Assembly: GCA_016931965.1 (NCBI GenBank)
Contig: JAFGDT010000110.1
Location: forward strand, 40,377-104,376
Direction of reading: 5' to 3'
Length of the DNA: 64,000 nt
DNA from: a bacterium
GTDB taxonomy: Bacteria > Zhuqueibacterota > QNDG01 > DSAB01
Made by a program: the position numbers and the translations under genes. Numbering within the stretch: the first letter of the stretch is position 1; every line of letters begins with the position of its first letter. Below are positions 21,506 through 38,426 of the stretch, piece after piece. The notes beneath the pieces are model-generated. The model made no database searches. It saw only the letters and a list, made by a program, of their open reading frames with translations, and was not told the DNA's origin.

Positions 21506-22858
21506 ATGATAAGAAGATTGTTTTTCATTATTATGGGTATACTCATCTGTTCTGGCCATCTGCCGGCGCAAGATGTTGCCCTTACAGTTTATAATCAAAA
21601 CAGGGCCCTGGTCAGGGAAATCAGAAAACTCTCTATCGAATCAGGAATTTCAACAATATCTTTTACTGATGTAGCTGCCTTAATCGATCCAACCTCTGTT
21701 CATTTTCAGTCTCTGACGGATCCTGATAAATTGACCATATTGGAGCAGAATTTTGAGTACGATCTGGTCAGTTCGAGTAAGATACTGGAAAAGTATATCG
21801 ATGAATCGATACGGATTGTCACCAGCGAAGGAGAAGTCTTTAGCGGAAATCTTCTCAGCGCTGCGGGATCCGATGTGGTCATTCAAGACCAGGGGGGCTC
21901 CATCAAGGTCATCGGCAGATCAGGTATTCAGCATTTCGATTTTCTTGAACTTCCGGAAGGGCTGATCACACGGCCCACACTGGTCTGGATGGTTGAGAAT
22001 CAGGGCAAAAAAGAGCAGGACGGTGAAATCAGTTATTTAACAGGCGGTGTCAACTGGCATGCGGAATATGTCGCCGTCTCGGATGCAGATGATCAAAATT
22101 TAAATATCAGCGGTTGGGTATCCGTCGAAAACCGTTCGGGCACAGCTTATCAAAATGCCAAACTCAAACTGGTTGCAGGAGATGTCAATGTGGTTCAGGA
22201 ATATCGTCAGACCGGAGAAGTCATGATGGAGACCACGGCACTGGCCAGGGTGGCTCCCCAGTTTGAAGAGAGCGAACTCTTCGAGTATCATCTCTATACG
22301 CTTCAACGCAGAACGACGCTGAAAAATAACCAGATCAAACAGGTCTCACTTTTCTCGCCGGCTCAAACGAAAACGAAAAAGTTATTCATATACGATGGCG
22401 CCAGATACGATCAAAAAGTTCGTGTGCATCTCGAATTTCAGAACAGCCAGCGGGATGGACTGGGACTGCCGCTTCCCAAAGGAAAGATACGGGTCTACAA
22501 AGAAGATCAGGATGGCGCTCTGGAATTTATCGGTGAAGATCAAATCGATCACACGCCGGTTGATGAAAAAATCCGGATTTTTTTAGGGAATGCCTTTGAT
22601 CTTGTGGGCGAGAGGGTCGTTAAGTCTTCGAGAAGCATCAGCAACCGTTCGCGTGAGGAGGAGATCGAAATCGTCCTGAGAAATCATAAAGAAGAAGATG
22701 TCGAAATTGTCGTGGTTGAACATTTCTACGGCGACTGGAACATTGAAGAGAGTTCCGATCCCTTTTCACAAAAAGATGCCTATACATCGGAATTTGTCAT
22801 GCCTGTTCCTTCGCAAGGAGAAAGGACGCTCACCTATAAGGTCGTTATCCGTTGGTAA
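21506..22858 (+). CDS. DUF4139-domain protein (MuiA-like), secreted
   Basis: A signal peptide is followed by DVALTVYNQNRALVRE, typical of the DUF4140/DUF4139 family. Confidence 0.6.
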   Translation: MIRRLFFIIMGILICSGHLPAQDVALTVYNQNRALVREIRKLSIESGISTISFTDVAALIDPTSVHFQSLTDPDKLTILEQNFEYDLVSSSKILEKYIDESIRIVTSEGEVFSGNLLSAAGSDVVIQDQGGSIKVIGRSGIQHFDFLELPEGLITRPTLVWMVENQGKKEQDGEISYLTGGVNWHAEYVAVSDADDQNLNISGWVSVENRSGTAYQNAKLKLVAGDVNVVQEYRQTGEVMMETTALARVAPQFEESELFEYHLYTLQRRTTLKNNQIKQVSLFSPAQTKTKKLFIYDGARYDQKVRVHLEFQNSQRDGLGLPLPKGKIRVYKEDQDGALEFIGEDQIDHTPVDEKIRIFLGNAFDLVGERVVKSSRSISNRSREEEIEIVLRNHKEEDVEIVVVEHFYGDWNIEESSDPFSQKDAYTSEFVMPVPSQGERTLTYKVVIRW

Positions 22859-22898
22859 AAGTCCATATGTTTTTATAGGTCGGTATCTTTTTGAATGT

Positions 22899-25007
22899 AT
22901 GAACATGCCTTCTCACAACCAGTTGAAAATGGAAACGCCCGTACAATTTGTGAAGGGTATCGGCCCCAAGCGTGCAACCCTTCTTAAACGCGTCTTCATC
23001 GAAACGGTTGAGGATCTTCTCACCTATTTTCCCCGTCGTTATCTTGATCGCAGTCAGTTGACCCAAATTCGTCACTTGAAAGCAGGTGAAGAGGTGACTG
23101 TCATGGGGAAGGTGCTTTCCTGCGAAACGGTCAGAGGAAGGGTCAGTCGCTATATGCTTTTATTGGGTGACGGAACGGGAATTCTTCAGTGTGTATGGTT
23201 CCGCGGCGTTCACTATATTTCAAAAGTTTTTCAAATAGGGGATAGAGTTGCTTTCAATGGAAAAATCACCTACTACCATGGACCCCAGCTTGTGCATCCT
23301 GAATATGATAAAATCTCGGAAGAAGGAGAATCGGATCCCGTGCATACAGGGAGAATCATCCCCATGTATCCTTCAACCGAGGCCCTGTCCCGAAGCGGCT
23401 TGGACAGTCGCGGATTCAGACGGATTCTTCGGGGTGTGCTGGACAGCATGACGGAATCGATCCCTGAGACCCTGTCTCAGGAAATCATTCGCAATCAAAA
23501 ACTGGTCTCCCTTTCATATGCTCTGGCCAATATTCATTTTCCTCAAAGCTGGAAGGGTCTCAGGCAGGCCCAACACAGATTAAAATTTGAAGAATTGTTT
23601 TTCCTTCAGCTTTTTTTAGCGCTTCAGAGAAAAACGAATCAAGTAGAAAAAAAAGGGATTGTTTTTCAAATAGTGGGTGAGCAGACCAAACAGCTGGTTG
23701 ATCGTCTTCCTTTTGAATTGACCCAGGCCCAAAAACGCGTTCTGCATGAAATTCGCCGGGACATGAAAAAGGAGCAGTCGATGAACCGTTTGCTACAGGG
23801 CGATGTAGGATCCGGGAAAACCATTGTTGCCCTGGTAGCGATGTTGATAGCCGTTGAAAATGGTTTCCAGGCCGCGCTGATGGCGCCGACAGAAATTCTT
23901 GCGGAACAGCACTACATCAATGTGCATGGCTGGCTGGAAGATTTGGGTGTTCAAGTGGCTTTGCTCAAAGGAGGACAAAGGGAATCCGAAAGACGAGAAA
24001 TTTTAAGAAAAATGTCCGAAGGCGAAATCAATATTGTTGTGGGGACACATGCTCTTGTTCAGGAGAGTGTCTGCTTCAAACAGTTGGGCTTTGTTGTGAT
24101 TGATGAACAGCATCGTTTCGGTGTCATGCAGAGAGCTGTCCTTCGGCAAAAAGGGTATCATCCCGATGTTCTGGTGATGACGGCCACACCGATTCCACGA
24201 ACATTGACCTTAACCCTCTATGGCGATTTGGACATTTCCATTATCGATGAGATGCCCGCGGGAAGAAAACCCATTCGCACTTTCTGGCGGAAAGAAGACA
24301 AACGAGATGAAATTTACACCTTTATACGGCGTGAAATCGGGAAAGGACGACAGGCTTATGTTGTCTATCCTCTGGTGGAGGAATCGGAGAAAGTGGATCT
24401 GGCCGATGCAACCGCTGGATATGAAATGTTGTCCAAGCAGATTTTTCCTGAATATAAGCTGGCGCTGATACACGGTCGTATGAAGGCTGAAGAAAAAGAG
24501 AAAATCATGGGCGATTTCACATCCGGGGGGATCCATATTCTCGTCAGTACAACCGTTATTGAAGTGGGTGTGGATGTGCCGAATGCGACTGTTATGCTGA
24601 TTGAGCATGCCGAACGTTTTGGATTGAGTCAGCTCCATCAATTGCGCGGACGGGTGGGTCGGGGTGAAGACCAGGCCACCTGCATTCTTCTTTCCCAGTA
24701 TCAACTCTCCGATGATGCTGTGAAAAGATTGAAAACCATGGTTGAAACCACGGATGGATTTCGAATCGCGGAAGTCGATCTGCAGTTGAGGGGGCCCGGA
24801 GAGATCTGTGGAACGAGGCAGCACGGTATACTGGACTTTAAAATAGCCAACCTGATAACGGATGAATCTATTTTAACCGCAGCGCGAAAGGAGACGTTTC
24901 AGTTGGTTGAAGCCGATTTTCATCTCGAACAGTTCGAGAATCAGCAGCTCAGGGACACTTATTTGAAACGATATCAGGAAAAAATGGGTTTAATGAAAGT
25001 GGGATAA
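22899..25007 (+). CDS. recG: ATP-dependent DNA helicase RecG
   Basis: It has an N-terminal wedge region (VKGIGPKRATLL), GDVGSGKT, and DEQHRFGV within helicase motifs. I took the start as ATG 22899 (MNMPSH...). Confidence 0.9.
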   Translation: MNMPSHNQLKMETPVQFVKGIGPKRATLLKRVFIETVEDLLTYFPRRYLDRSQLTQIRHLKAGEEVTVMGKVLSCETVRGRVSRYMLLLGDGTGILQCVWFRGVHYISKVFQIGDRVAFNGKITYYHGPQLVHPEYDKISEEGESDPVHTGRIIPMYPSTEALSRSGLDSRGFRRILRGVLDSMTESIPETLSQEIIRNQKLVSLSYALANIHFPQSWKGLRQAQHRLKFEELFFLQLFLALQRKTNQVEKKGIVFQIVGEQTKQLVDRLPFELTQAQKRVLHEIRRDMKKEQSMNRLLQGDVGSGKTIVALVAMLIAVENGFQAALMAPTEILAEQHYINVHGWLEDLGVQVALLKGGQRESERREILRKMSEGEINIVVGTHALVQESVCFKQLGFVVIDEQHRFGVMQRAVLRQKGYHPDVLVMTATPIPRTLTLTLYGDLDISIIDEMPAGRKPIRTFWRKEDKRDEIYTFIRREIGKGRQAYVVYPLVEESEKVDLADATAGYEMLSKQIFPEYKLALIHGRMKAEEKEKIMGDFTSGGIHILVSTTVIEVGVDVPNATVMLIEHAERFGLSQLHQLRGRVGRGEDQATCILLSQYQLSDDAVKRLKTMVETTDGFRIAEVDLQLRGPGEICGTRQHGILDFKIANLITDESILTAARKETFQLVEADFHLEQFENQQLRDTYLKRYQEKMGLMKVG

Positions 25008-31415: not shown

Positions 31416-32441
31416 ATGAAGTCAATTCGATTATTTATGGTTGTTTCAACTGTTTTTGTGATCGGTTCTTGCAGTTTGAAGCCAAGAAGCTGGTGGACAG
31501 AGGGTGTCATTGGCGTGATAATGGATCAAGAAGAATGGGAAGTGACACAGATACCATTAGAGAGGGTATACGAGCGTGTTGTACGTACTCCTCAAATTGA
31601 AACGATGTTTACAATCAGATATGTGCCTGACTCCGATTTCGAGCGATACACAAGCTATCAGTATCTCATCTTGGCAGCTACTTTGGAATCGCATGGGAGG
31701 GTCGGTCAAATTGTCGAGAGGGTTGTTTCCGATCCTGAAATTCGTCAGGGGGTGGAGGAGGGGGAGTATTATGTCTTTACCCAACGCGACCAGTGGGCGA
31801 AAGATCAATTGATGATCATTCTCGTCGCCAAGGATTTGATCACCCTTCGCGAAAAGATCGAGACCAATGAAGAGTTTCTCTACGCTATTTTTGATGCTGA
31901 TTGGAATGAACAACTCGAGGAAGACATGTTTGCAAGAGGTGAGCAGAAGGATGTCGAAGAAGAGCTCATGGCTATTTATGGTTGGTCTATGCGGATTCAA
32001 CGGGATTATTTTCTTGTTCAGGAACTGCCGGAGGAAGGATTTATCTGGTTTCGTCGAATGTATCCCGAACGCTGGATATTTGTACGCTGGATTGATGGGG
32101 GGGATACGACGTTGTTGGATCCCTATTGGATTGTTAAGGAAAGGAACCGTATTGGTGCTGAGTATTATGGCGGGGATCGGGTAAGAAGCGACCAGTTTTT
32201 ATTTTCTCGCAGGTCCACCTTTTTGGGTCGGAAGGCACAGATCACATCCGGTCTTTGGGAGAATGACGGGAAGGTGGCCGGCGGACCTTTTATCAATTAC
32301 ACCTTCCACGATTCTCTTTCCCGCCGGGTTTATATGATTGATGTGGCTGTTTTTGCTCCGGCCAGGGATAAAATGCCTTATCTTCGTCGTCTTGATGTCC
32401 TGGCTCATACTTTTCACACGGTCTTTGATATGGGAAGGTGA
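31416..32441 (+). CDS. hypothetical lipoprotein (possibly DUF4837-like)
   Basis: MKSIRLFMVVSTVFVIGSC is a lipoprotein signal and AGGAG lies 7 nt upstream. The family assignment is weak. Confidence 0.45.
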   Translation: MKSIRLFMVVSTVFVIGSCSLKPRSWWTEGVIGVIMDQEEWEVTQIPLERVYERVVRTPQIETMFTIRYVPDSDFERYTSYQYLILAATLESHGRVGQIVERVVSDPEIRQGVEEGEYYVFTQRDQWAKDQLMIILVAKDLITLREKIETNEEFLYAIFDADWNEQLEEDMFARGEQKDVEEELMAIYGWSMRIQRDYFLVQELPEEGFIWFRRMYPERWIFVRWIDGGDTTLLDPYWIVKERNRIGAEYYGGDRVRSDQFLFSRRSTFLGRKAQITSGLWENDGKVAGGPFINYTFHDSLSRRVYMIDVAVFAPARDKMPYLRRLDVLAHTFHTVFDMGR

Positions 32442-32503
32442 GCTTGTATAGAGGATGAATCTATCATAACACTGGATCAAAGTTTTTATTAAAAGAGGGA
32501 TAC

Positions 32504-32983
32504 TTGAATATGGCTTTCAATAAGGATGTCAAAGTGGCTGTTTTGATGGGGAGTCAGTCAGATGAGACTGTCATGCAGCATTGTGTTCAACTGCTTCAAT
32601 ATTTTGGCATTCCCCATGAGGTGCATGTGATGTCCGCACATCGTCATCCAGACAAAGTAACAGTGTTTGCTCAATCCATTGATGAGAAAGATATTCATGT
32701 TGTTATTGCGGGTGCGGGTATGGCTGCACATCTTCCCGGTGTATTGGCTTCCCAGACCACAGTACCGGTCATTGGTGTACCTCTGGAGGGATCCTCTTTG
32801 GGAGGGCAGGATGCGCTTTTTTCCATGGTGCAAATGCCTTCGGGAATTCCTGTGGCCACGATGGCTATCGGAAAAACAGGGGCACAAAATGCGGCTATTT
32901 TGGCCGCAGAGATTTTAGCGCTTCGGGATAATGCATTAAAAAAGAAATTGATCGCATTCAGAAAACAGGGGAGTAAAATATAG
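32504..32983 (+). CDS. purE: 5-(carboxyamino)imidazole ribonucleotide mutase
   Basis: VAVLMGSQSD...VIAGAGMAAHLPGVLASQTTVPVIGVP is the canonical PurE sequence. Confidence 0.9.
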   Translation: MNMAFNKDVKVAVLMGSQSDETVMQHCVQLLQYFGIPHEVHVMSAHRHPDKVTVFAQSIDEKDIHVVIAGAGMAAHLPGVLASQTTVPVIGVPLEGSSLGGQDALFSMVQMPSGIPVATMAIGKTGAQNAAILAAEILALRDNALKKKLIAFRKQGSKI

Positions 32984-33025
32984 GGTGTATTGTTCGTACT
33001 ATAAATATCAATCGAGGAATTTGTC

Positions 33026-35098
33026 ATGAATATAGGTTGGGTAAGTAAAATATTGGAGGATTCACAATACAACCTATTAATCTTTAAATATGAAGAAATA
33101 GAAGCCCTTGAAAAAAGGATTATTGTTAAGAATGATAAGCCCTATGTCAATTGTATTATTCGTGAGAAGGAAGTCCATCTGAAACCCGAGGAAATCGTCC
33201 GTCAGCTTTATACTGCTAAGCTCATCAAAGATTACGGTTATCCCAGAAAACGGATACGATTCGAGCATCCTGTCCAGTTTGGGCGGGAAACAAAATCTGC
33301 AGATATCGTCGTGTTTGACAAAGATAGACCAACCGTTGAATATATTATTGTCGAGGTCAAGAAACCGAAGCTCAAGGATGGCAAGGAACAACTGAGATCA
33401 TATTGTAATGCTACCGGAGCACCCATTGGTGTATGGTCAAACGGAGGGCAGATTTCCCATTATAATCGTAAAGATCCGAATTTTTTCGAGGACATCACCG
33501 ACATCCCTAAAGCAGATCAGACTTTTGAAGACATTCTGAAAGAACGTTTTACGCTGCGCGACTTGATCATTCGCGATAAAATCCCCAATGAAGGCAAATC
33601 TCTTAAGACCATTATTACCGAAATGGAAGATGAGGTTCTCGCAAATGCCGGTGTTGATGTTTTTGAAGAGGTTTTCAAACTTATATTTGCTAAACTATAT
33701 GACGAACAAAAAAGTCAACAGGACAAGAGCGTTATCAATTATTTTCTGCGTAATAAGGAACTGCCGCAGGTATCTGAACGACAAGCTTTTTATAGTGCCA
33801 AAAACAACGATACGTTTGATTCGATCAAGGAAGCGCTGCAAAAAATAGACGATTCCGGTTTCAGAGTTCTTGAATTCCGTAACACCGGCCAATCCGAGGG
33901 CGAGTTAAAGAAGAAGATACAGAAACTTTTTGACGATGCTAAAAATAAATGGCCGGGCGTTTTCCCTGATGAAAGTAAAATTGATCTTTCACCTTCGCAC
34001 CTTTCCGTTTGTATTTCAAGCCTTCAGGATGTCAAACTTTTCAATTCCAATCTGCAGGTTATAGACGAAGCTTTTGAATATCTGGTAAACAAGTCCTCTA
34101 AGGGAGAAAAGGGCCAATATTTCACTCCTCGGCATGTGATCGATATGTGCGTCAAGATGCTTAATCCCAAGCGGGGTGAATATATGATCGACACCGCCGC
34201 CGGTTCCTGTGGATTCACTGTTCATACGATCTTTCACCGTACAGGGCACTTATTTGAAAATACAGAAATTTCTCAGGAAGAAAAAGAGGATGTCCTCAAA
34301 GTTTTCGGCATTGATTTTGATGAAAAGGTCGTGCGTGTGGCTCGGACACTCAACTTGATCGCAGGCGATGGTGAAACAAACATTTTGCATCTTAATACAC
34401 TGGATTATGACCGCTGGGATGAAATCGTTAATAACCCGGATTGGCGGGACACTTACGGAAGTGGTTTTAGACGCTTGGAAGCCCTCAAAAAAGAGACTAA
34501 TGGCCATAAAGAATTTCTCTTTGATATTTTGATGGCCAATCCACCATTTGCAGGGGATATTAAAGAATCCCGCATCATCCATAAATATGAGCTCGGCTAT
34601 AACAAGAAGAACAAGCCAAAGTCAAAGGTCGGCAGGGATATTCTCTTTATCGAACGAAACCTTGATTTCATCAAGCCGGGTGGCAGGATGGCAATCGTAT
34701 TGCCTCAAGGGTGATTCAACAATACATCCGATAAGGACATCCGGGAATTTGTTGCGGGTAAGGCGCGCATTTTGGCAGTTGTCGGCCTGCAGGGCAACAC
34801 CTTTAAACCCCACACAGGCACCAAAACAAGTGTCTTATTCCTGCAAAAATGGGACAAAAAACTTTGCCCAAAGAAAGATGATTATCCTATCTTTTTTGCG
34901 GTATCAGAGAAATCAGGCAAGGATAATTCAGGCGAATACGTCTACGTTAAAAATGGTGAGGGCAAGCCAAAGCTGGATTACTACGGTCATTTTATCGTTG
35001 ATCACGATCTGCACAATCAAGGCGGCGCATTACCGGATGGTATTGCCGAAGCATTCATTGACTGGGCGAAGAAAGAGAAATTGAGCTTTTGGAAATAA
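33026..35098 (+). pseudogene. hsdM: Type I RM methyltransferase subunit HsdM interrupted by an in-frame TGA at 34712-34714
   Basis: It has motif I DTAAGSCGFTV and motif IV ILMANPPFAG. The frame reads ...AIVLPQG*FNNTSDKDIREFVAGKARILAVVGLQGNTF..., so the C-terminal ~128 aa continue in the same frame after the stop. TGA is used as a genuine stop elsewhere, for example at the mutS end. Confidence 0.6.
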
Positions 35099-35101
35099 CA
35101 T

Positions 35102-36529
35102 ATGCAAATATCTTGTGTTAATTACAAGAAATTAGATCAAGGGACACGGCTTGATGCAGAGTATTACAAGCCAGAGTTCTTAGAAGTCGAAAAAATACTA
35201 TGGAAAGCTAACTGTAAACTGTTAGACGATGTGAGCAAGTCGATCAAAAGTTTTGGAGCATATGCATTGTGCAACAAGATGGTTTTAGTTGCTAAAGGGA
35301 TTCCCTTTATACGATGTAAGGATATCAAAAAAGGTTTTGTTGATTTTTCAGAAGTACTTTTCATTGATGAGGCAACACACTGCCTTCTTTCAAAATCAGC
35401 GATTACTCCTAATATCGTTATGCTCACTATGTCTGGGTCAGTAGGTAATTCTGCAATTGCTGATCCAACTTGGAAATATCCAATAAATTCAAATCAAGAC
35501 ATTGCGAAGATAGAAACGGATGATTTAATAAATCCATACTATTTAACTGTTTTTTTCAATACAAAATATGGGAAAAGCCAAACAGAAAGATTGCCCATTG
35601 GTAGTATTCAACAACATATTTTTTTATGGCAGTTGAAAGGACTTCTAATTTTTACACCATCATCCAAATTACAAGGATTAATAGCTGGCATTTATTGCAA
35701 AGTTATTAAATTATTAAAAGATAGCGATTTCTTTTATCAAAAAGCAGAGCAAATCCTACTTTTCGAGCTTGGCCTTCTGAACTGGAAGCCAAAGCGAAGA
35801 CTTTCATTTGTCAAGAATTTCTCCGAAACGCAGACCGGCGGACGCATTGACGCCGAATACTTCCAACCGATGTATGAGGAAATCGTCGACAAGATATCAA
35901 AACGATTTAATGCTAAGCCGATTGGTGAATATAATTTTATCGATGTCACAACAGGACAATATTCGGATAATTATACTGAAAAGTTGTCTGGTTTGCCATA
36001 TATAAGAGGCACAGATTTACTTTCTGGTACTGTGAAAATGGACAATCTTGTTTATATTGCAAAAGAGCACCAAGAAAAAAGCAAGCTTGCGAGAGAAGGC
36101 GATGTTGTTGTCACACGGGTAGGAACTATTGGTTTATCAGCAAGGATTCCAAAAGAATGTGAAGGCGGTACTATTAGTGATAATCTCATTAGACTAAGAA
36201 TTAAAGATGATGGATTGGACACCTATTTTCTTGCTTTATTTCTTGATAGTATCTTGGGCAGAAGTTTAATGATACGATACAGCAGAGGAAGTGTTCAGCA
36301 ACGTTTAAATCAGGAAACTTTAAAGGAAATCATCATCCCGATTTTAGACAGAAATATTCAAGCAAACATTGCTTTGGAAGTTAAAGATTCTCATAAGCTA
36401 AGGGAACAGTCAAGGTGTCTGTTAGACATTGCCAAGCGTGGCGTTGAGATGGCGATCGAGAAGAGTGAAAAAGACGCTCAAAATTGGATCGATGAAGAAT
36501 TGAGGAAGTTAAACTTCCGTGTGGATTAG
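35102..36529 (+). CDS. hsdS: Type I RM specificity subunit HsdS (two TRDs)
   Basis: The 475-aa protein has two target-recognition domains separated by a conserved central region and a C-terminal coiled coil (QNWIDEELRKL). Confidence 0.85.
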   Translation: MQISCVNYKKLDQGTRLDAEYYKPEFLEVEKILWKANCKLLDDVSKSIKSFGAYALCNKMVLVAKGIPFIRCKDIKKGFVDFSEVLFIDEATHCLLSKSAITPNIVMLTMSGSVGNSAIADPTWKYPINSNQDIAKIETDDLINPYYLTVFFNTKYGKSQTERLPIGSIQQHIFLWQLKGLLIFTPSSKLQGLIAGIYCKVIKLLKDSDFFYQKAEQILLFELGLLNWKPKRRLSFVKNFSETQTGGRIDAEYFQPMYEEIVDKISKRFNAKPIGEYNFIDVTTGQYSDNYTEKLSGLPYIRGTDLLSGTVKMDNLVYIAKEHQEKSKLAREGDVVVTRVGTIGLSARIPKECEGGTISDNLIRLRIKDDGLDTYFLALFLDSILGRSLMIRYSRGSVQQRLNQETLKEIIIPILDRNIQANIALEVKDSHKLREQSRCLLDIAKRGVEMAIEKSEKDAQNWIDEELRKLNFRVD

Positions 36530-36540
36530 AGAGGCAATCG

Positions 36541-37590
36541 ATGCCATTTAACCCGAAATATATCATTACCCCGAAGATCAATAAGGCGCTCATTGAGATC
36601 GAGCGGGTGCGGGGATTTCTGGATGCGATAAAGCTTAAGGATGACTGGATTTCCGATATGCAGAAAAAAGCGCTTATCCTTGAGTCGCACCACTCTACGC
36701 ATATTGAAGGTACAGCAATATCACTTTCTCAGGCACAGGATATTTTAGCGGGTAAAAAGGTTAAAGGCATCAGTCGTGACGATGAAAAAGAGCTTTTGAA
36801 TTACAAGAAGGCGATGGGTTTTATCTCAAAATATCTTGGCAAGGATGATCCGGTTTCGGAAGACATTATCCAAGAGCTTCACAGGATTCTGGTTAAAGGC
36901 GTCCGGGGCGAGAATGCAGGTCCGGGCAATTACCGAAAGATACAAAACTACGTCGTCAATTCCCGGACTCGTGAGGTCGTTTATACTCCGCCTCCCGCTT
37001 TAGAGGTCCCACATCTTATGCAAGAGTTTACGGAATGGATTAACAAGGCCGAGGATGTGTCGCCTATCCTTGTTGCCGCTATTGCCCAATTTCAGTTCGT
37101 GCATATTCATCCATTTATTGACGGTAACGGCAGGATGGCCCGGCTTCTTTCAACGCTTATTCTCTATAAGACAGGTTATGATTTTAAGCGGTTATTTACA
37201 ATCTCTGAATACTACGACAAAGACCGCTCAGCGTATTATGACGCTATTCAGTCAGTGCGTAAGAACAAGATGGATATGACCGGATGGCTTGAATATTTTG
37301 TTGATGGACTTCGTTCTCAGATGAAAGAGATACAGAATAAAGGAAAAGAGATCATTAAGAAAGATACAGCTTTGCAGAAAATAAAGAAAGCAGGATTTAA
37401 CGTTCGTCAGGAAAAAGCGATTAAGTTCATTTTACAGAATGGAAAAATAACAGTAAATGATTATCAGGCAGTTGCCTCATGTATTCGCAGGACAGCTCAG
37501 CGGGATTTGGATGATTTGCTTGAAAAGAAGGTCATAAAAGCGGTCGCCAAAAGCCCTACCGATCCGACAAAACATTATGTTTTACTGTGA
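36541..37590 (+). CDS. Fic/DOC family protein (putative AMPylator) with a C-terminal winged-helix domain
   Basis: HPFIDGNGRMARLL is the canonical HPFx[DE]GNGR Fic motif. The gene starts 11 nt after the hsdS stop. Confidence 0.9.
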   Translation: MPFNPKYIITPKINKALIEIERVRGFLDAIKLKDDWISDMQKKALILESHHSTHIEGTAISLSQAQDILAGKKVKGISRDDEKELLNYKKAMGFISKYLGKDDPVSEDIIQELHRILVKGVRGENAGPGNYRKIQNYVVNSRTREVVYTPPPALEVPHLMQEFTEWINKAEDVSPILVAAIAQFQFVHIHPFIDGNGRMARLLSTLILYKTGYDFKRLFTISEYYDKDRSAYYDAIQSVRKNKMDMTGWLEYFVDGLRSQMKEIQNKGKEIIKKDTALQKIKKAGFNVRQEKAIKFILQNGKITVNDYQAVASCIRRTAQRDLDDLLEKKVIKAVAKSPTDPTKHYVLL

Positions 37591-37628
37591 CAAGCTACTG
37601 TGACATACTGTGACATTTTACTGTGACA
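37584..37628 (+). repeat. four direct copies of ACTGTGACA at 10-13 bp spacing
   Basis: Copies lie at 37584-37592, 37597-37605, 37607-37615 and 37620-37628. The first overlaps the Fic stop codon and the fourth begins the hsdS stub. Confidence 0.8.
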
Positions 37629-37671
37629 AGGCGAAGAACCTAAAAACTGGATTGATGAGGAATTAAAATAA
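37622..37671 (+). pseudogene. orphan duplicate of the hsdS 3' terminus
   Basis: ...GAACCTAAAAACTGGATTGATGAGGAATTAAAATAA reads EPKNWIDEELK*. The real hsdS end (36470-36531) reads DAQNWIDEELRKLNFRVD*. Confidence 0.6.
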
Positions 37672-37697
37672 TTAGGAATTAAACAACTATCAACTGT

Positions 37698-38426
37698 ATG
37701 AATAACAATACCAAAATCCTGGTCATCATTCCAACTTATGATGAGGTGGAAAATATTCAGAAACTGATTCCCCTGGTTCTGGTTCAGGATCCACGTATTG
37801 GTGTACTGGTCATTGATGACGGTTCACCCGACGGTACGGCAGAGCAGGTTGAGAAGATGATGGCTAAAACAGATCATCGGTTGCATCTCATCAAACGTCC
37901 CCGTAAGATGGGTTTGGGAACGGCTTATGTGGATGGATTTAAGTATGCATTGAAAGAGCGGTATGATCTTATCTTCGAAATGGATGCCGATTTTTCCCAC
38001 GATCCAGATGCCATCCCCGAATTTTTAAAAACCATCGAAGATTACGATCTGGTGGTGGGTAGTCGATATATTCGGGGCGTCAATGTGATTAACTGGCCGA
38101 TGTCTCGTCTAATTCTTTCCTGGTTAGCGAATTTTTATACACGTGTGGTGACGGGACTTCCCCTTAAAGATGCTACCAGCGGATATAAGTGTTTTAAAAG
38201 AAATGTACTGGAGGCGATTGATCTGGATAATGTCCATTCGGATGGGTATGCATTTCAAATCGAGATCGACTTTAAAGTGTGGCAGAAAGGATTCCGTCTG
38301 AAAGAAATTCCCATCGTTTTTATCGATCGATATATCGGCATTTCTAAAATGAATCGCAAGATTATCCGGGAAGCCGTGTGGATGGTGTGGAAACTGCGCT
38401 TGTTGAGTCTATTTGGAAAATTATAA
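37698..38426 (+). CDS. GT2 polyprenol-phosphate mannose/glucose synthase (Dpm1/PpmS-like)
   Basis: It contains IIPTYDEVENI, VIDDGSPDGT, a DAD motif and GSRYI, the typical Dpm1-like GT2 motifs. Confidence 0.8.
   Translation: MNNNTKILVIIPTYDEVENIQKLIPLVLVQDPRIGVLVIDDGSPDGTAEQVEKMMAKTDHRLHLIKRPRKMGLGTAYVDGFKYALKERYDLIFEMDADFSHDPDAIPEFLKTIEDYDLVVGSRYIRGVNVINWPMSRLILSWLANFYTRVVTGLPLKDATSGYKCFKRNVLEAIDLDNVHSDGYAFQIEIDFKVWQKGFRLKEIPIVFIDRYIGISKMNRKIIREAVWMVWKLRLLSLFGKL

Follow-up and report, generated by a model that had tools for sequence, protein, structure and literature searches.

A motor-less Type IIB-like restriction locus with a fic gene, probably inactivated by a recent nonsense mutation in its nuclease-methyltransferase gene

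What kind of restriction-modification (RM) locus carries an hsdM-like gene (M) with a stop codon inside it, an intact specificity (S) gene, a fic gene and no hsdR? This question is raised by positions 33026-37671 of a 64-kb bacterial window (by window we mean the whole stretch of DNA that was analysed, 64,000 nucleotides (nt)). A sequence-only reading of the locus had seen either a decaying Type I system that had lost its hsdR or an hsdMS plus Fic module. The latter is the best description. We conclude, with a probability of roughly 70%, that the locus is a compact, horizontally acquired defence islet with purE and a glycosyltransferase gene on either side, whose core is a motor-less Type IIB-like RM and S pair inactivated by a real and recent nonsense mutation, and whose fic gene is independent cargo. 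M, S and fic are the only genes between these two flanking genes, and they are arranged as follows:

33026..35098, + strand: RM-fusion gene M ('hsdM' or N-6 DNA methylase in other annotations), 690 codons with one in-frame TGA; a pseudogene here
34712..34714, + strand: the in-frame TGA, which replaces the invariant Arg563 in LPQG-R-FNN
35102..36529, + strand: S (specificity) subunit gene, 475 amino acids (aa), intact; Pfam Methylase_S (PF01420)
36541..37590, + strand: fic gene, 349 aa, intact; Pfam Fic and Fic_N

The M frame starts at the ATG in 33026, runs for 562 codons up to the TGA and goes on in the same frame to the TAA at 35096-35098, as the sequence-only reading had described (the translation reads ...AIVLPQG, the stop, then FNNTSDKDIREF...). 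The relatives that are 79-91% identical to M are nearly all 676-712 aa long and have the same two domains, whose positions in M are:

33185..33508, + strand: N-terminal PD-(D/E)xK nuclease domain, aa 54-161; HSDR_N_2 (PF13588), E = 5.8e-27, whole profile covered
33263-33265 (E80), 33302-33304 (D93), 33353-33355 (E110) and 33359-33361 (K112), + strand: candidate catalytic residues of the nuclease
34058..34990, + strand: gamma-class N6-adenine methyltransferase domain, PF02384 (N6_Mtase), split by the stop

M is a fusion of an N-terminal PD-(D/E)xK nuclease and a gamma-class N6-adenine methyltransferase. In Type I systems HSDR_N_2, the Pfam family matched by aa 54-161, is the PD-(D/E)xK nuclease domain of the R subunit. 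Further downstream, positions 5-186 of the PF02384 profile were matched before the TGA and positions 189-275 after it, which means that a single domain is split at one codon. Motif I (DTAAGSCGF, 34190-34216) and motif IV (NPPF, 34538-34549) both lie 5' of the TGA, where they had been placed from the sequence alone. The PADLOC profile MTase_I (PDLC03034) gave 965 bits with M.

Among the proteins of solved structure, the best sequence match of M was RM.BsaXI, with the single sequence (E = 6.8e-19) as well as with the family profile (E = 5.2e-23). The N-terminal domains of the two proteins were co-linear in both alignments, each of them weak alone, and E110 and K112 of M aligned with E105 and K107 of BsaXI. 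The catalytic residues of BsaXI are E73, D90, E105 and K107, which are conserved across Type IIB enzymes (PMC11997821). In the window family, E80, D93, E110 and K112 were invariant in 18 relatives and also in 44 relatives, and E80, D93 and E110 were conserved in at least 90% of the relatives down to 31% identity. These invariant E/D/ExK residues argue for catalysis by the nuclease domain.

Regarding the fold, a first AlphaFold model from 44 sequences of 79-91% identity was unusable (pLDDT 46), and a second one (AF2), for which representatives down to 31% identity were added, reached a pLDDT of 85.8 and a pTM of 0.79. When this second model was compared with the PDB using Foldseek, the top three matches were BsaXI chains (E = 2.7e-23 to 2.6e-21), aligned over about 709 columns, practically the whole protein. 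For the Type IIG enzymes DrdV and BpuSI the alignments had about 630-660 columns, and for the Type I M subunits only about 450-530. The M subunits of EcoKI, StySJI and others were also among the sequence and fold matches.

BsaXI (Type IIB; PDB 8w0p/8w2p; PMC11997821) has the same organisation as the window pair: two genes, of which one encodes an N-terminal PD-(D/E)xK domain, a helical connector and a gamma-class N6-adenine methyltransferase in one chain, and the other a separate S of about 475 aa with two target-recognition domains (TRDs), with no translocase. However, identity over the structural alignment was about 17%, and BsaXI has 916 aa whereas the window protein has 690. The knob and the paddle, which are extra C-terminal elements of BsaXI, are presumably absent from the window protein, whose C-terminus is a short helix and resembles rather the tail of the BcgI/EcoKI type. 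Furthermore, the window copy is truncated, and DNA cleavage by its family is something that we infer from architecture and conservation.

The BcgI-type Type IIB enzymes share the domain order, the subunit split and the size of the RM subunit with the window pair (BcgI A has about 640 aa, against 690 aa), and this placement is by architecture, not by close homology or direct sequence comparison. M matched the PADLOC Type IIG profile (length 637) over aa 362-463 only. The BcgI-type enzymes have been described as 'motor-less Type I' systems (PMC6158711), and the methyltransferase of the RM+S group as HsdM-like (PMC11997821). With classical Type I systems (EcoKI HsdM/HsdS/HsdR) the window pair shares a homologous methyltransferase core and a two-TRD S; unlike them, it lacks an HsdR translocase, both in the window and in the family loci, and the nuclease is fused to M instead.

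The S gene starts 3 nt after the M stop. It had been considered intact with two TRDs, and this was borne out: both halves are covered by the PADLOC Specificity_I profiles (aa 4-194 and 181-454), and the NCBIfam MAD5 profile matched aa 1-453. Its conserved regions are:

about 35744-35791, + strand: S conserved region CR1
about 36419-36502, + strand: S conserved region CR2

Thus the features of a Type IIB RM+S system are present, namely a fused N-terminal PD-(D/E)xK domain with the E...D...ExK residues, a two-TRD S (separate, or fused in some relatives) and no motor. Judged from the sequence, the architecture of the locus is that of Type IIB RM+S, and HsdR, the feature that defines Type I, is missing.

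Is this missing hsdR a loss? The sequence-only reading was right that there is none in the window, where the only superfamily 2 (SF2) helicase among the large open reading frames (ORFs) is RecG (22680-25004). We scanned one genome per species for the M family, which gave at least 570 loci, and analysed the gene order of 79 related loci. The relatives of 79-91% identity came from Bacteroidota, Elusimicrobiota, Omnitrophota, Planctomycetota, Chloroflexota, Marinimicrobia and others, and the best 80 of the at least 570 loci (64-91% identity) added Patescibacteria, Nitrospirota, Poribacteria, Latescibacterota and Proteobacteria. An all-against-library search with the RM family gave 7040 matches at E <= 1e-3, 711 of them at E <= 1e-30. 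S was downstream of M in 72 of the 79 loci, and the gene orders were:

38 of 79 loci: S immediately after M
34 of 79 loci: M, one to three inserted genes, then S
7 of 79 loci: S not found; several of them stop with M or a little beyond it

None of the 79 loci had an hsdR in operon position. Within 10 kb of the related loci, helicase domains were found in only 3 of the 32 ORFs of at least 750 aa, and nine large ORFs that were checked singly, operon-adjacent ones included, had none, being housekeeping or unrelated proteins. Eight hsdR candidates beside M (in loci L036, L047, L051, L053, L058, L064, L070 and L078) were rejected as HTH proteins, sensor kinases, peptidase M1, GlyRS, oxidoreductases or TPR/TIR proteins. 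The closest relative of M (locus L001, 91% identity) had the order M-S-DUF3800 amid housekeeping genes, and a Klebsiella IncF plasmid carried M, S and a hypothetical gene, with no R. In plasmid 2 of Klebsiella pneumoniae INF231 (NZ_LR890357.1) the M and S pair is at 177937-179961 and 176537-177928, and closed chromosomes such as OZ244028.1, OZ240244.1 and OY282373.1 carry the family as well. The family also includes single-chain RM-S proteins of 1170-1210 aa with a fused Methylase_S, and an RM-half-S protein of 907 aa with one TRD. Since the family loci have no R, the nuclease is fused, and RM+S, RMS and RM-half-S forms make a continuum like that of Type IIB and IIG enzymes, the missing hsdR is probably the native state of the RM+S family and not decay.

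One of the two descriptions offered by the sequence-only reading was a classical Type I system in which M and S are a decaying remnant and hsdR has either been lost or is encoded in another part of the genome. The 'type I M' labels given to the family by JGI and by PADLOC (REBASE-derived) fit it, as does the agreement of the methyltransferase fold with HsdM structures, and the visible DNA is the window and not the remaining genome. However, M has its own conserved nuclease domain, with BsaXI as its closest solved relative; the 79 loci from many phyla have no hsdR in operon position, when classical Type I hsdR genes are normally adjacent to the system; and the same family includes single-chain RM-S fusions. 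A Type I remnant is therefore highly improbable here.

The other part of the question is the stop codon. The sequence-only reading was correct in that a single codon is replaced, and it left the lost residue unspecified (G-x-F-N), whereas this residue is an invariant Arg (QG-R-FNN), present in 17 of 17, 44 of 44 and 79 of 79 relatives. The Arg codons of the 79 relatives were AGA (28), AGG (19), CGC (13), CGT (7), CGG (7) and CGA (5), and TGA is a single substitution away from AGA or CGA. In the window TGA is a true stop, as had been stated: of the 65 ORFs that measure 150 codons or more from stop to stop, 21 end in it, therefore the standard code applies. The fic gene is among these 21 ORFs, and its TGA coincides with the stop of the fic homologue of locus L010, from a Thermodesulfobacteriota metagenome-assembled genome (MAG).

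For this TGA, a nonsense mutation, a phase-variable site and a sequencing error had been proposed. Phase variation was rejected because the lesion is a base substitution with no repeat tract at the site: no simple repeat stands beside the stop (CCTCAAGGGTGATTCAAC), the repeat scan detected no local inverted repeats around it, and the islet contains no recombinase gene.

An error of sequencing or assembly, or a minority allele in a population where the gene is intact and the system active in most cells, would fit a sequence that comes from a MAG and a lesion of one base in a 4.6-kb module that is otherwise undamaged. Moreover, when metagenome contigs were scanned for exact matches to the 57 nt that surround the stop, the first base of the codon being left free (N), there were 0 matches, so no second copy of the allele was found, stop or sense. 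However, the Logan contig SRR13394437_1059548 (run SRR13394437) is 100% identical to positions 33361-36759 of the window (3399 nt), TGA included, and the gene calls on it break M just as in the window. The exact S, Fic, purE and glycosyltransferase proteins have two NCBI accessions each, in the RQV9207x and MBN20310xx series (RQV92074.1 and MBN2031023.1 for S). As the purE and S accessions are consecutive in both series, neither record has an M protein between them, which would be the outcome expected of a pseudogene call. Finally, a collection of 5.8 billion clusters contained no intact protein more than 91% identical to M. We consider an error or a minority allele quite unlikely.

The codons beyond the stop were compared with those of the 91% relative. 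In the 127 codons 3' of the stop no other lesion was present, and 48 of the differences were synonymous and 5 non-synonymous; 5' of the stop there were 138 synonymous and 61 non-synonymous differences. Because there is no second lesion, the 127 downstream codons are intact and so are S and Fic, the lesion must be recent, and the TGA is most likely a real, recent nonsense mutation.

The same open downstream codons, as conserved as in the relatives, together with the intact S, could also mean that the UGA is decoded at low frequency, by near-cognate read-through or as selenocysteine, so that a little full-length enzyme is made and the RM system is attenuated and not dead. Nevertheless, a recent mutation explains the downstream preservation equally well. 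A U after UGA is not known to be among the leakiest contexts. No SECIS-like hairpin (the selenocysteine insertion element) was found in 34700-34790, as the fold of these 91 nt, which include the UGA, was no more stable than that of shuffled sequences (z = 0.71; it was equalled or surpassed by 149 of 200 shuffles), and the only tRNA gene in the window is a tRNA-Leu. Recoding as selenocysteine was rejected for the lack of such a fold, the normal use of TGA as a stop and the Arg sense codons in 79 of 79 relatives, in line with the sequence-only reading, which had ruled it out. Low-frequency decoding in general we regard as unlikely.

From these data the following mechanism can be proposed. In an intact copy, one chain would combine the N-terminal PD-(D/E)xK nuclease, a helical linker and the gamma-class N6-adenine methyltransferase, and the bipartite sequence to be recognised would be specified by the separate two-TRD S subunit. 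If BsaXI and BcgI are a guide, RM and S would form an (RM)2S complex that methylates the sites of the host and cleaves unmethylated DNA in the vicinity of its site. Such cutting would need no ATP-driven translocase, and this may be why there is no hsdR. In this genome, one base change would have turned the codon of the invariant Arg563 (AGA or CGA) into TGA. The 562-aa product would retain the nuclease domain and motifs I-IV and would lack the Phe right after Arg563, which we take to be a residue of the adenine-binding pocket by comparison with other gamma-class methyltransferases. According to the model, it would also lack the last methyltransferase strands (580-587, 601-608 and 623-626) and the C-terminal helix (673-683). 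An HsdM with a deleted C-terminus does not assemble with HsdS (PMC6158711). Because the HsdM-type C-terminal region is required for S binding, methylation and S-directed cleavage would be lost together and the mutation would be harmless to the host; it would thus be tolerated, with S persisting as an intact orphan for now. The RM system of this genome would then be dead by one recent point mutation, and the motif specified by S should be unmethylated.

Several points weigh against what we propose. Taken alone, the match between the nuclease domain and BsaXI is weak (conditional E = 2.8e-5), and in this weak alignment E80 and D93 are offset by up to 2 residues from E73 and D90 of BsaXI. At 0.43, the global TM-scores of the AF2 model against BsaXI are low, owing to a different arrangement of the domains. 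We know of no exact member of the RM+S family for which DNA cutting has been shown. The hsdR survey of this genome covers 64 kb, and a distant hsdR is possible. Regarding the stop, the Logan contig and one NCBI MAG may share one run and thus may not be independent, and the population may be polymorphic at the TGA, since the evidence comes from assemblies and not from reads. Lastly, M and S could depend on partners from other loci, as their relatives MAD2 and MAD5 work inside an eight-gene system (10.1101/2023.03.30.534895).

This system, MADS, deserves attention, as MAD2 and MAD5 are the nearest NCBIfam families and the PADLOC mad2 profile aligns from aa 55 of M, the nuclease-like N-terminus included. 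However, MAD2 gave 300 bits against a cut-off of 720 and MAD5 169 against 400, and the other six mad genes are absent. Membership in MADS was rejected with these scores under the equivalog cut-offs and with no mad1-8 operon, there being only M, S and Fic.

The genes inserted between M and S, or trailing S, form a typical defence and toxin assortment: DUF4145 (8), AAA_15/AAA_21 ATPases (7), PIN (4), the YhcG nuclease (3), Fic (3), RhuM (2), DUF3800 (2) and PemK (2), and also Mrr_cat, HipA_2, Schlafen and PycTM. This cargo bears on a further explanation, in which M and S are only a sequence-specific methyltransferase with a non-catalytic nuclease-like domain, and defence comes from the cargo (Fic here), coupled somehow to the methylation status. 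Of 72 loci, 34 have cargo between M and S, and in many others it comes after S; the related MADS system requires extra genes, and engineered nuclease-HsdM fusions were able to methylate but not to restrict (PMC6158711). Nevertheless, S follows M directly in 38 of the 72 loci, the genes after S are often housekeeping genes, the E/D/ExK residues are invariant, and the same Fic is mostly found without this M/S pair. We judge a methyltransferase-only role very unlikely.

Identities of 79-91% between very distant phyla imply frequent recent horizontal transfer of the RM family, and no integrase or transposase was adjacent to the family genes despite them. For the islet itself, the GC content of 0.40 differs slightly from that of its flanks (0.42-0.45), which would be weak evidence of foreign origin. 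The promoter and terminator scans over 32400-38000 gave chance level only. In the locus of the closest relative, we observed beside M-S-DUF3800 a 49-aa TrmI-like N-terminal fragment (14444-14593), a nucleotidyltransferase pair and a full trmI (15144-15992), which suggests a target-gene duplication at the insertion site.

What is the fic gene doing at the end of the islet? It starts 11 nt after the S stop and encodes, as had been proposed, a Fic protein, probably of the class whose C-terminus bears a winged helix-turn-helix (wHTH). The sequence-only reading had also called it toxin-like and had placed it in the position of hsdR. The first label needs to be qualified, because the protein carries its own inhibitory motif:

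36694-36711, + strand: Fic inhibitory motif STHIEG (S52-T-H-I-E56-G57), which aligns with the same motif in PDB 7xux
37108-37143, + strand: Fic active site HPFIDGNGRMAR, aa 190-201

Since the motif S52-x-x-x-E56-G57 is in the same chain, this Fic is classified from its sequence as a class II, self-inhibited, SoFic-type AMP-transferase with a predicted C-terminal wHTH. Its PDB matches were 7xux, 4rgl and SoFic 3eqx/3zcn, the SoFic chains matching by sequence aa 137-263 only. Like SoFic and the other class II Fic-wHTH proteins (the anti-phage EcSofic and the autoregulator CccR), it has Fic_N and Fic, the SxxxEG inhibitory motif and the HPFx(D/E)GNGRxxR active site, and a wHTH is predicted. The PADLOC SoFic profile matched it almost from end to end (232 bits; aa 12-335 on profile positions 24-340 of 361). 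However, the protein scored 93.7 against a cut-off of 550 for the NCBIfam SoFic equivalog, and no AS1-like small gene was found downstream of fic, where the 107 nt to the next gene contain no ORF and only a start-less S relic. SoFic-type proteins act as single-gene anti-phage systems, and SoFic AMPylates EF-Tu and binds DNA via its wHTH (PMC12249575; 10.64898/2026.07.09.737422).

The idea that Fic occupies the hsdR position did not hold, given that fic is one of many interchangeable cargo genes. The M-S-Fic order was also found in L010, with homology over 33104-35907 (76%) and 36427-37628 (78%). Between the two fic genes there are 108 synonymous and 73 non-synonymous codon differences, the proteins sharing 79% identity, and the TRD2 of S (35907-36427) could not be aligned, whereas the remainder of the module aligns. 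By contrast, only 3 of 80 metagenomic Fic relatives (73-83% identity) adjoin this M/S family. What precedes others of them is a genuine Type I HsdR, a pair of Type III Res and Mod genes, GmrSD or something unrelated. Therefore this Fic appears to be an independent, interchangeable cargo cassette at the 3' end of S and not a stand-in for hsdR. Two of the genes located 5' of such Fic relatives, a Type I HsdR (1203 aa, L158 2209-5817) and a Type III Res (1052 aa, L094 2744-5899), end in a C-terminal Peptidase_S24 (LexA-like) domain, which is an unusual fusion.

Two further elements lie at the 3' end of fic:

37583..37628, + strand: four direct repeats of TACTGTGACA, starting at 37583, 37596, 37606 and 37619 (period 10-13 nt); the first overlaps the fic stop codon
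37627..37671, + strand: S-gene 3'-end relic QGEEPKNWIDEELK followed by a stop, with no start codon, directly after the repeat array

The TACTGTGACA array belongs to the fic cassette. L010 has it with the same spacing (14564-14609), and the array or near variants of it follow about 75 of the 80 metagenomic Fic relatives (L088-L167), just past the fic stop and whatever the neighbours. Paralogous Fic-wHTH genes with a different wHTH sequence have different repeats: three copies of AGGTTGGCGATT in L152, GGTTGGCGATT/AGTTGTCA in L113 and four copies of (A/G)GGACA in L167. This pattern suggests that the TACTGTGACA array may be a binding array of the wHTH or a cassette boundary. The binding reported for SoFic is to a promoter region, whereas the repeat array of the window is at the 3' end of fic.

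Regarding the relic, the NWIDEEL in QGEEPKNWIDEELK is identical to the C-terminus of the resident S, which ends in QNWIDEELRKLNFRVD and the stop, and it is typical of the C-termini of the family S proteins. The homology with L010 ends at 37628. The relic looks like the putative scar of a cassette insertion or of an allele replacement, which suggests that a segment with the 3' end of an S gene plus fic recombined into a pre-existing S gene.

The islet is in the end small and ordinary, an inactivated representative of already-known kinds, and there is nothing unusual in a fic gene next to an RM gene with a nonsense mutation. What is noteworthy is the systematic misannotation of a widespread motor-less RM family, its habit of carrying cargo and the Fic repeat array. 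The labels 'type I M' and 'N-6 DNA methylase' make such loci look like incomplete Type I systems. If the fused nuclease is recognised, they can be reclassified as self-contained Type IIB-like systems in hundreds of species genomes, mostly uncultured, as well as in a Klebsiella plasmid and in plasmid pAQ6 of Picosynechococcus PCC 7002.

A broader idea can be put forward, although we hold it only tentatively and think it doubtful as a whole. The RM+S family could be a very widespread, unusually conserved and still uncharacterised motor-less clade (at least 570 species genomes, 64-91% identity, more than 15 phyla) that carries defence cargo, either inserted between its two genes or placed at the 3' end of S. 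The Fic would then be a mobile cassette that docks on the 3' ends of restriction operons, bounded by the array of four repeats, which co-varies with the wHTH, acting as a specific site for Fic-wHTH binding or for recombination, and the S relic would be its scar.

We also made some observations on related enzymes. Plasmid pAQ6 (NC_010480.1) encodes an RM-S chain of 1179 aa (WP_012308631.1; L086, 8001-11540), 61% identical to M over the RM part. The PCC 7002 methylome has an unassigned bipartite motif, GG(6mA)N5CTTC (PMC12362590), of which this enzyme is a possible source. In Poribacteria, one locus (L082) has three M-like genes of 930, 932 and 704 aa and another (L066) has two of 941 and 712 aa; in these tandem paralogues, RM-half-S fusions of about 930 aa stand directly 5' of a standard RM+S pair. 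Finally, the window contains a second restriction system on the - strand (10279-13209), an apparently intact single-chain Type IIG-like enzyme of 977 aa with HSDR_N, N6_Mtase/Eco57I/MmeI_Mtase and TaqI_C domains.

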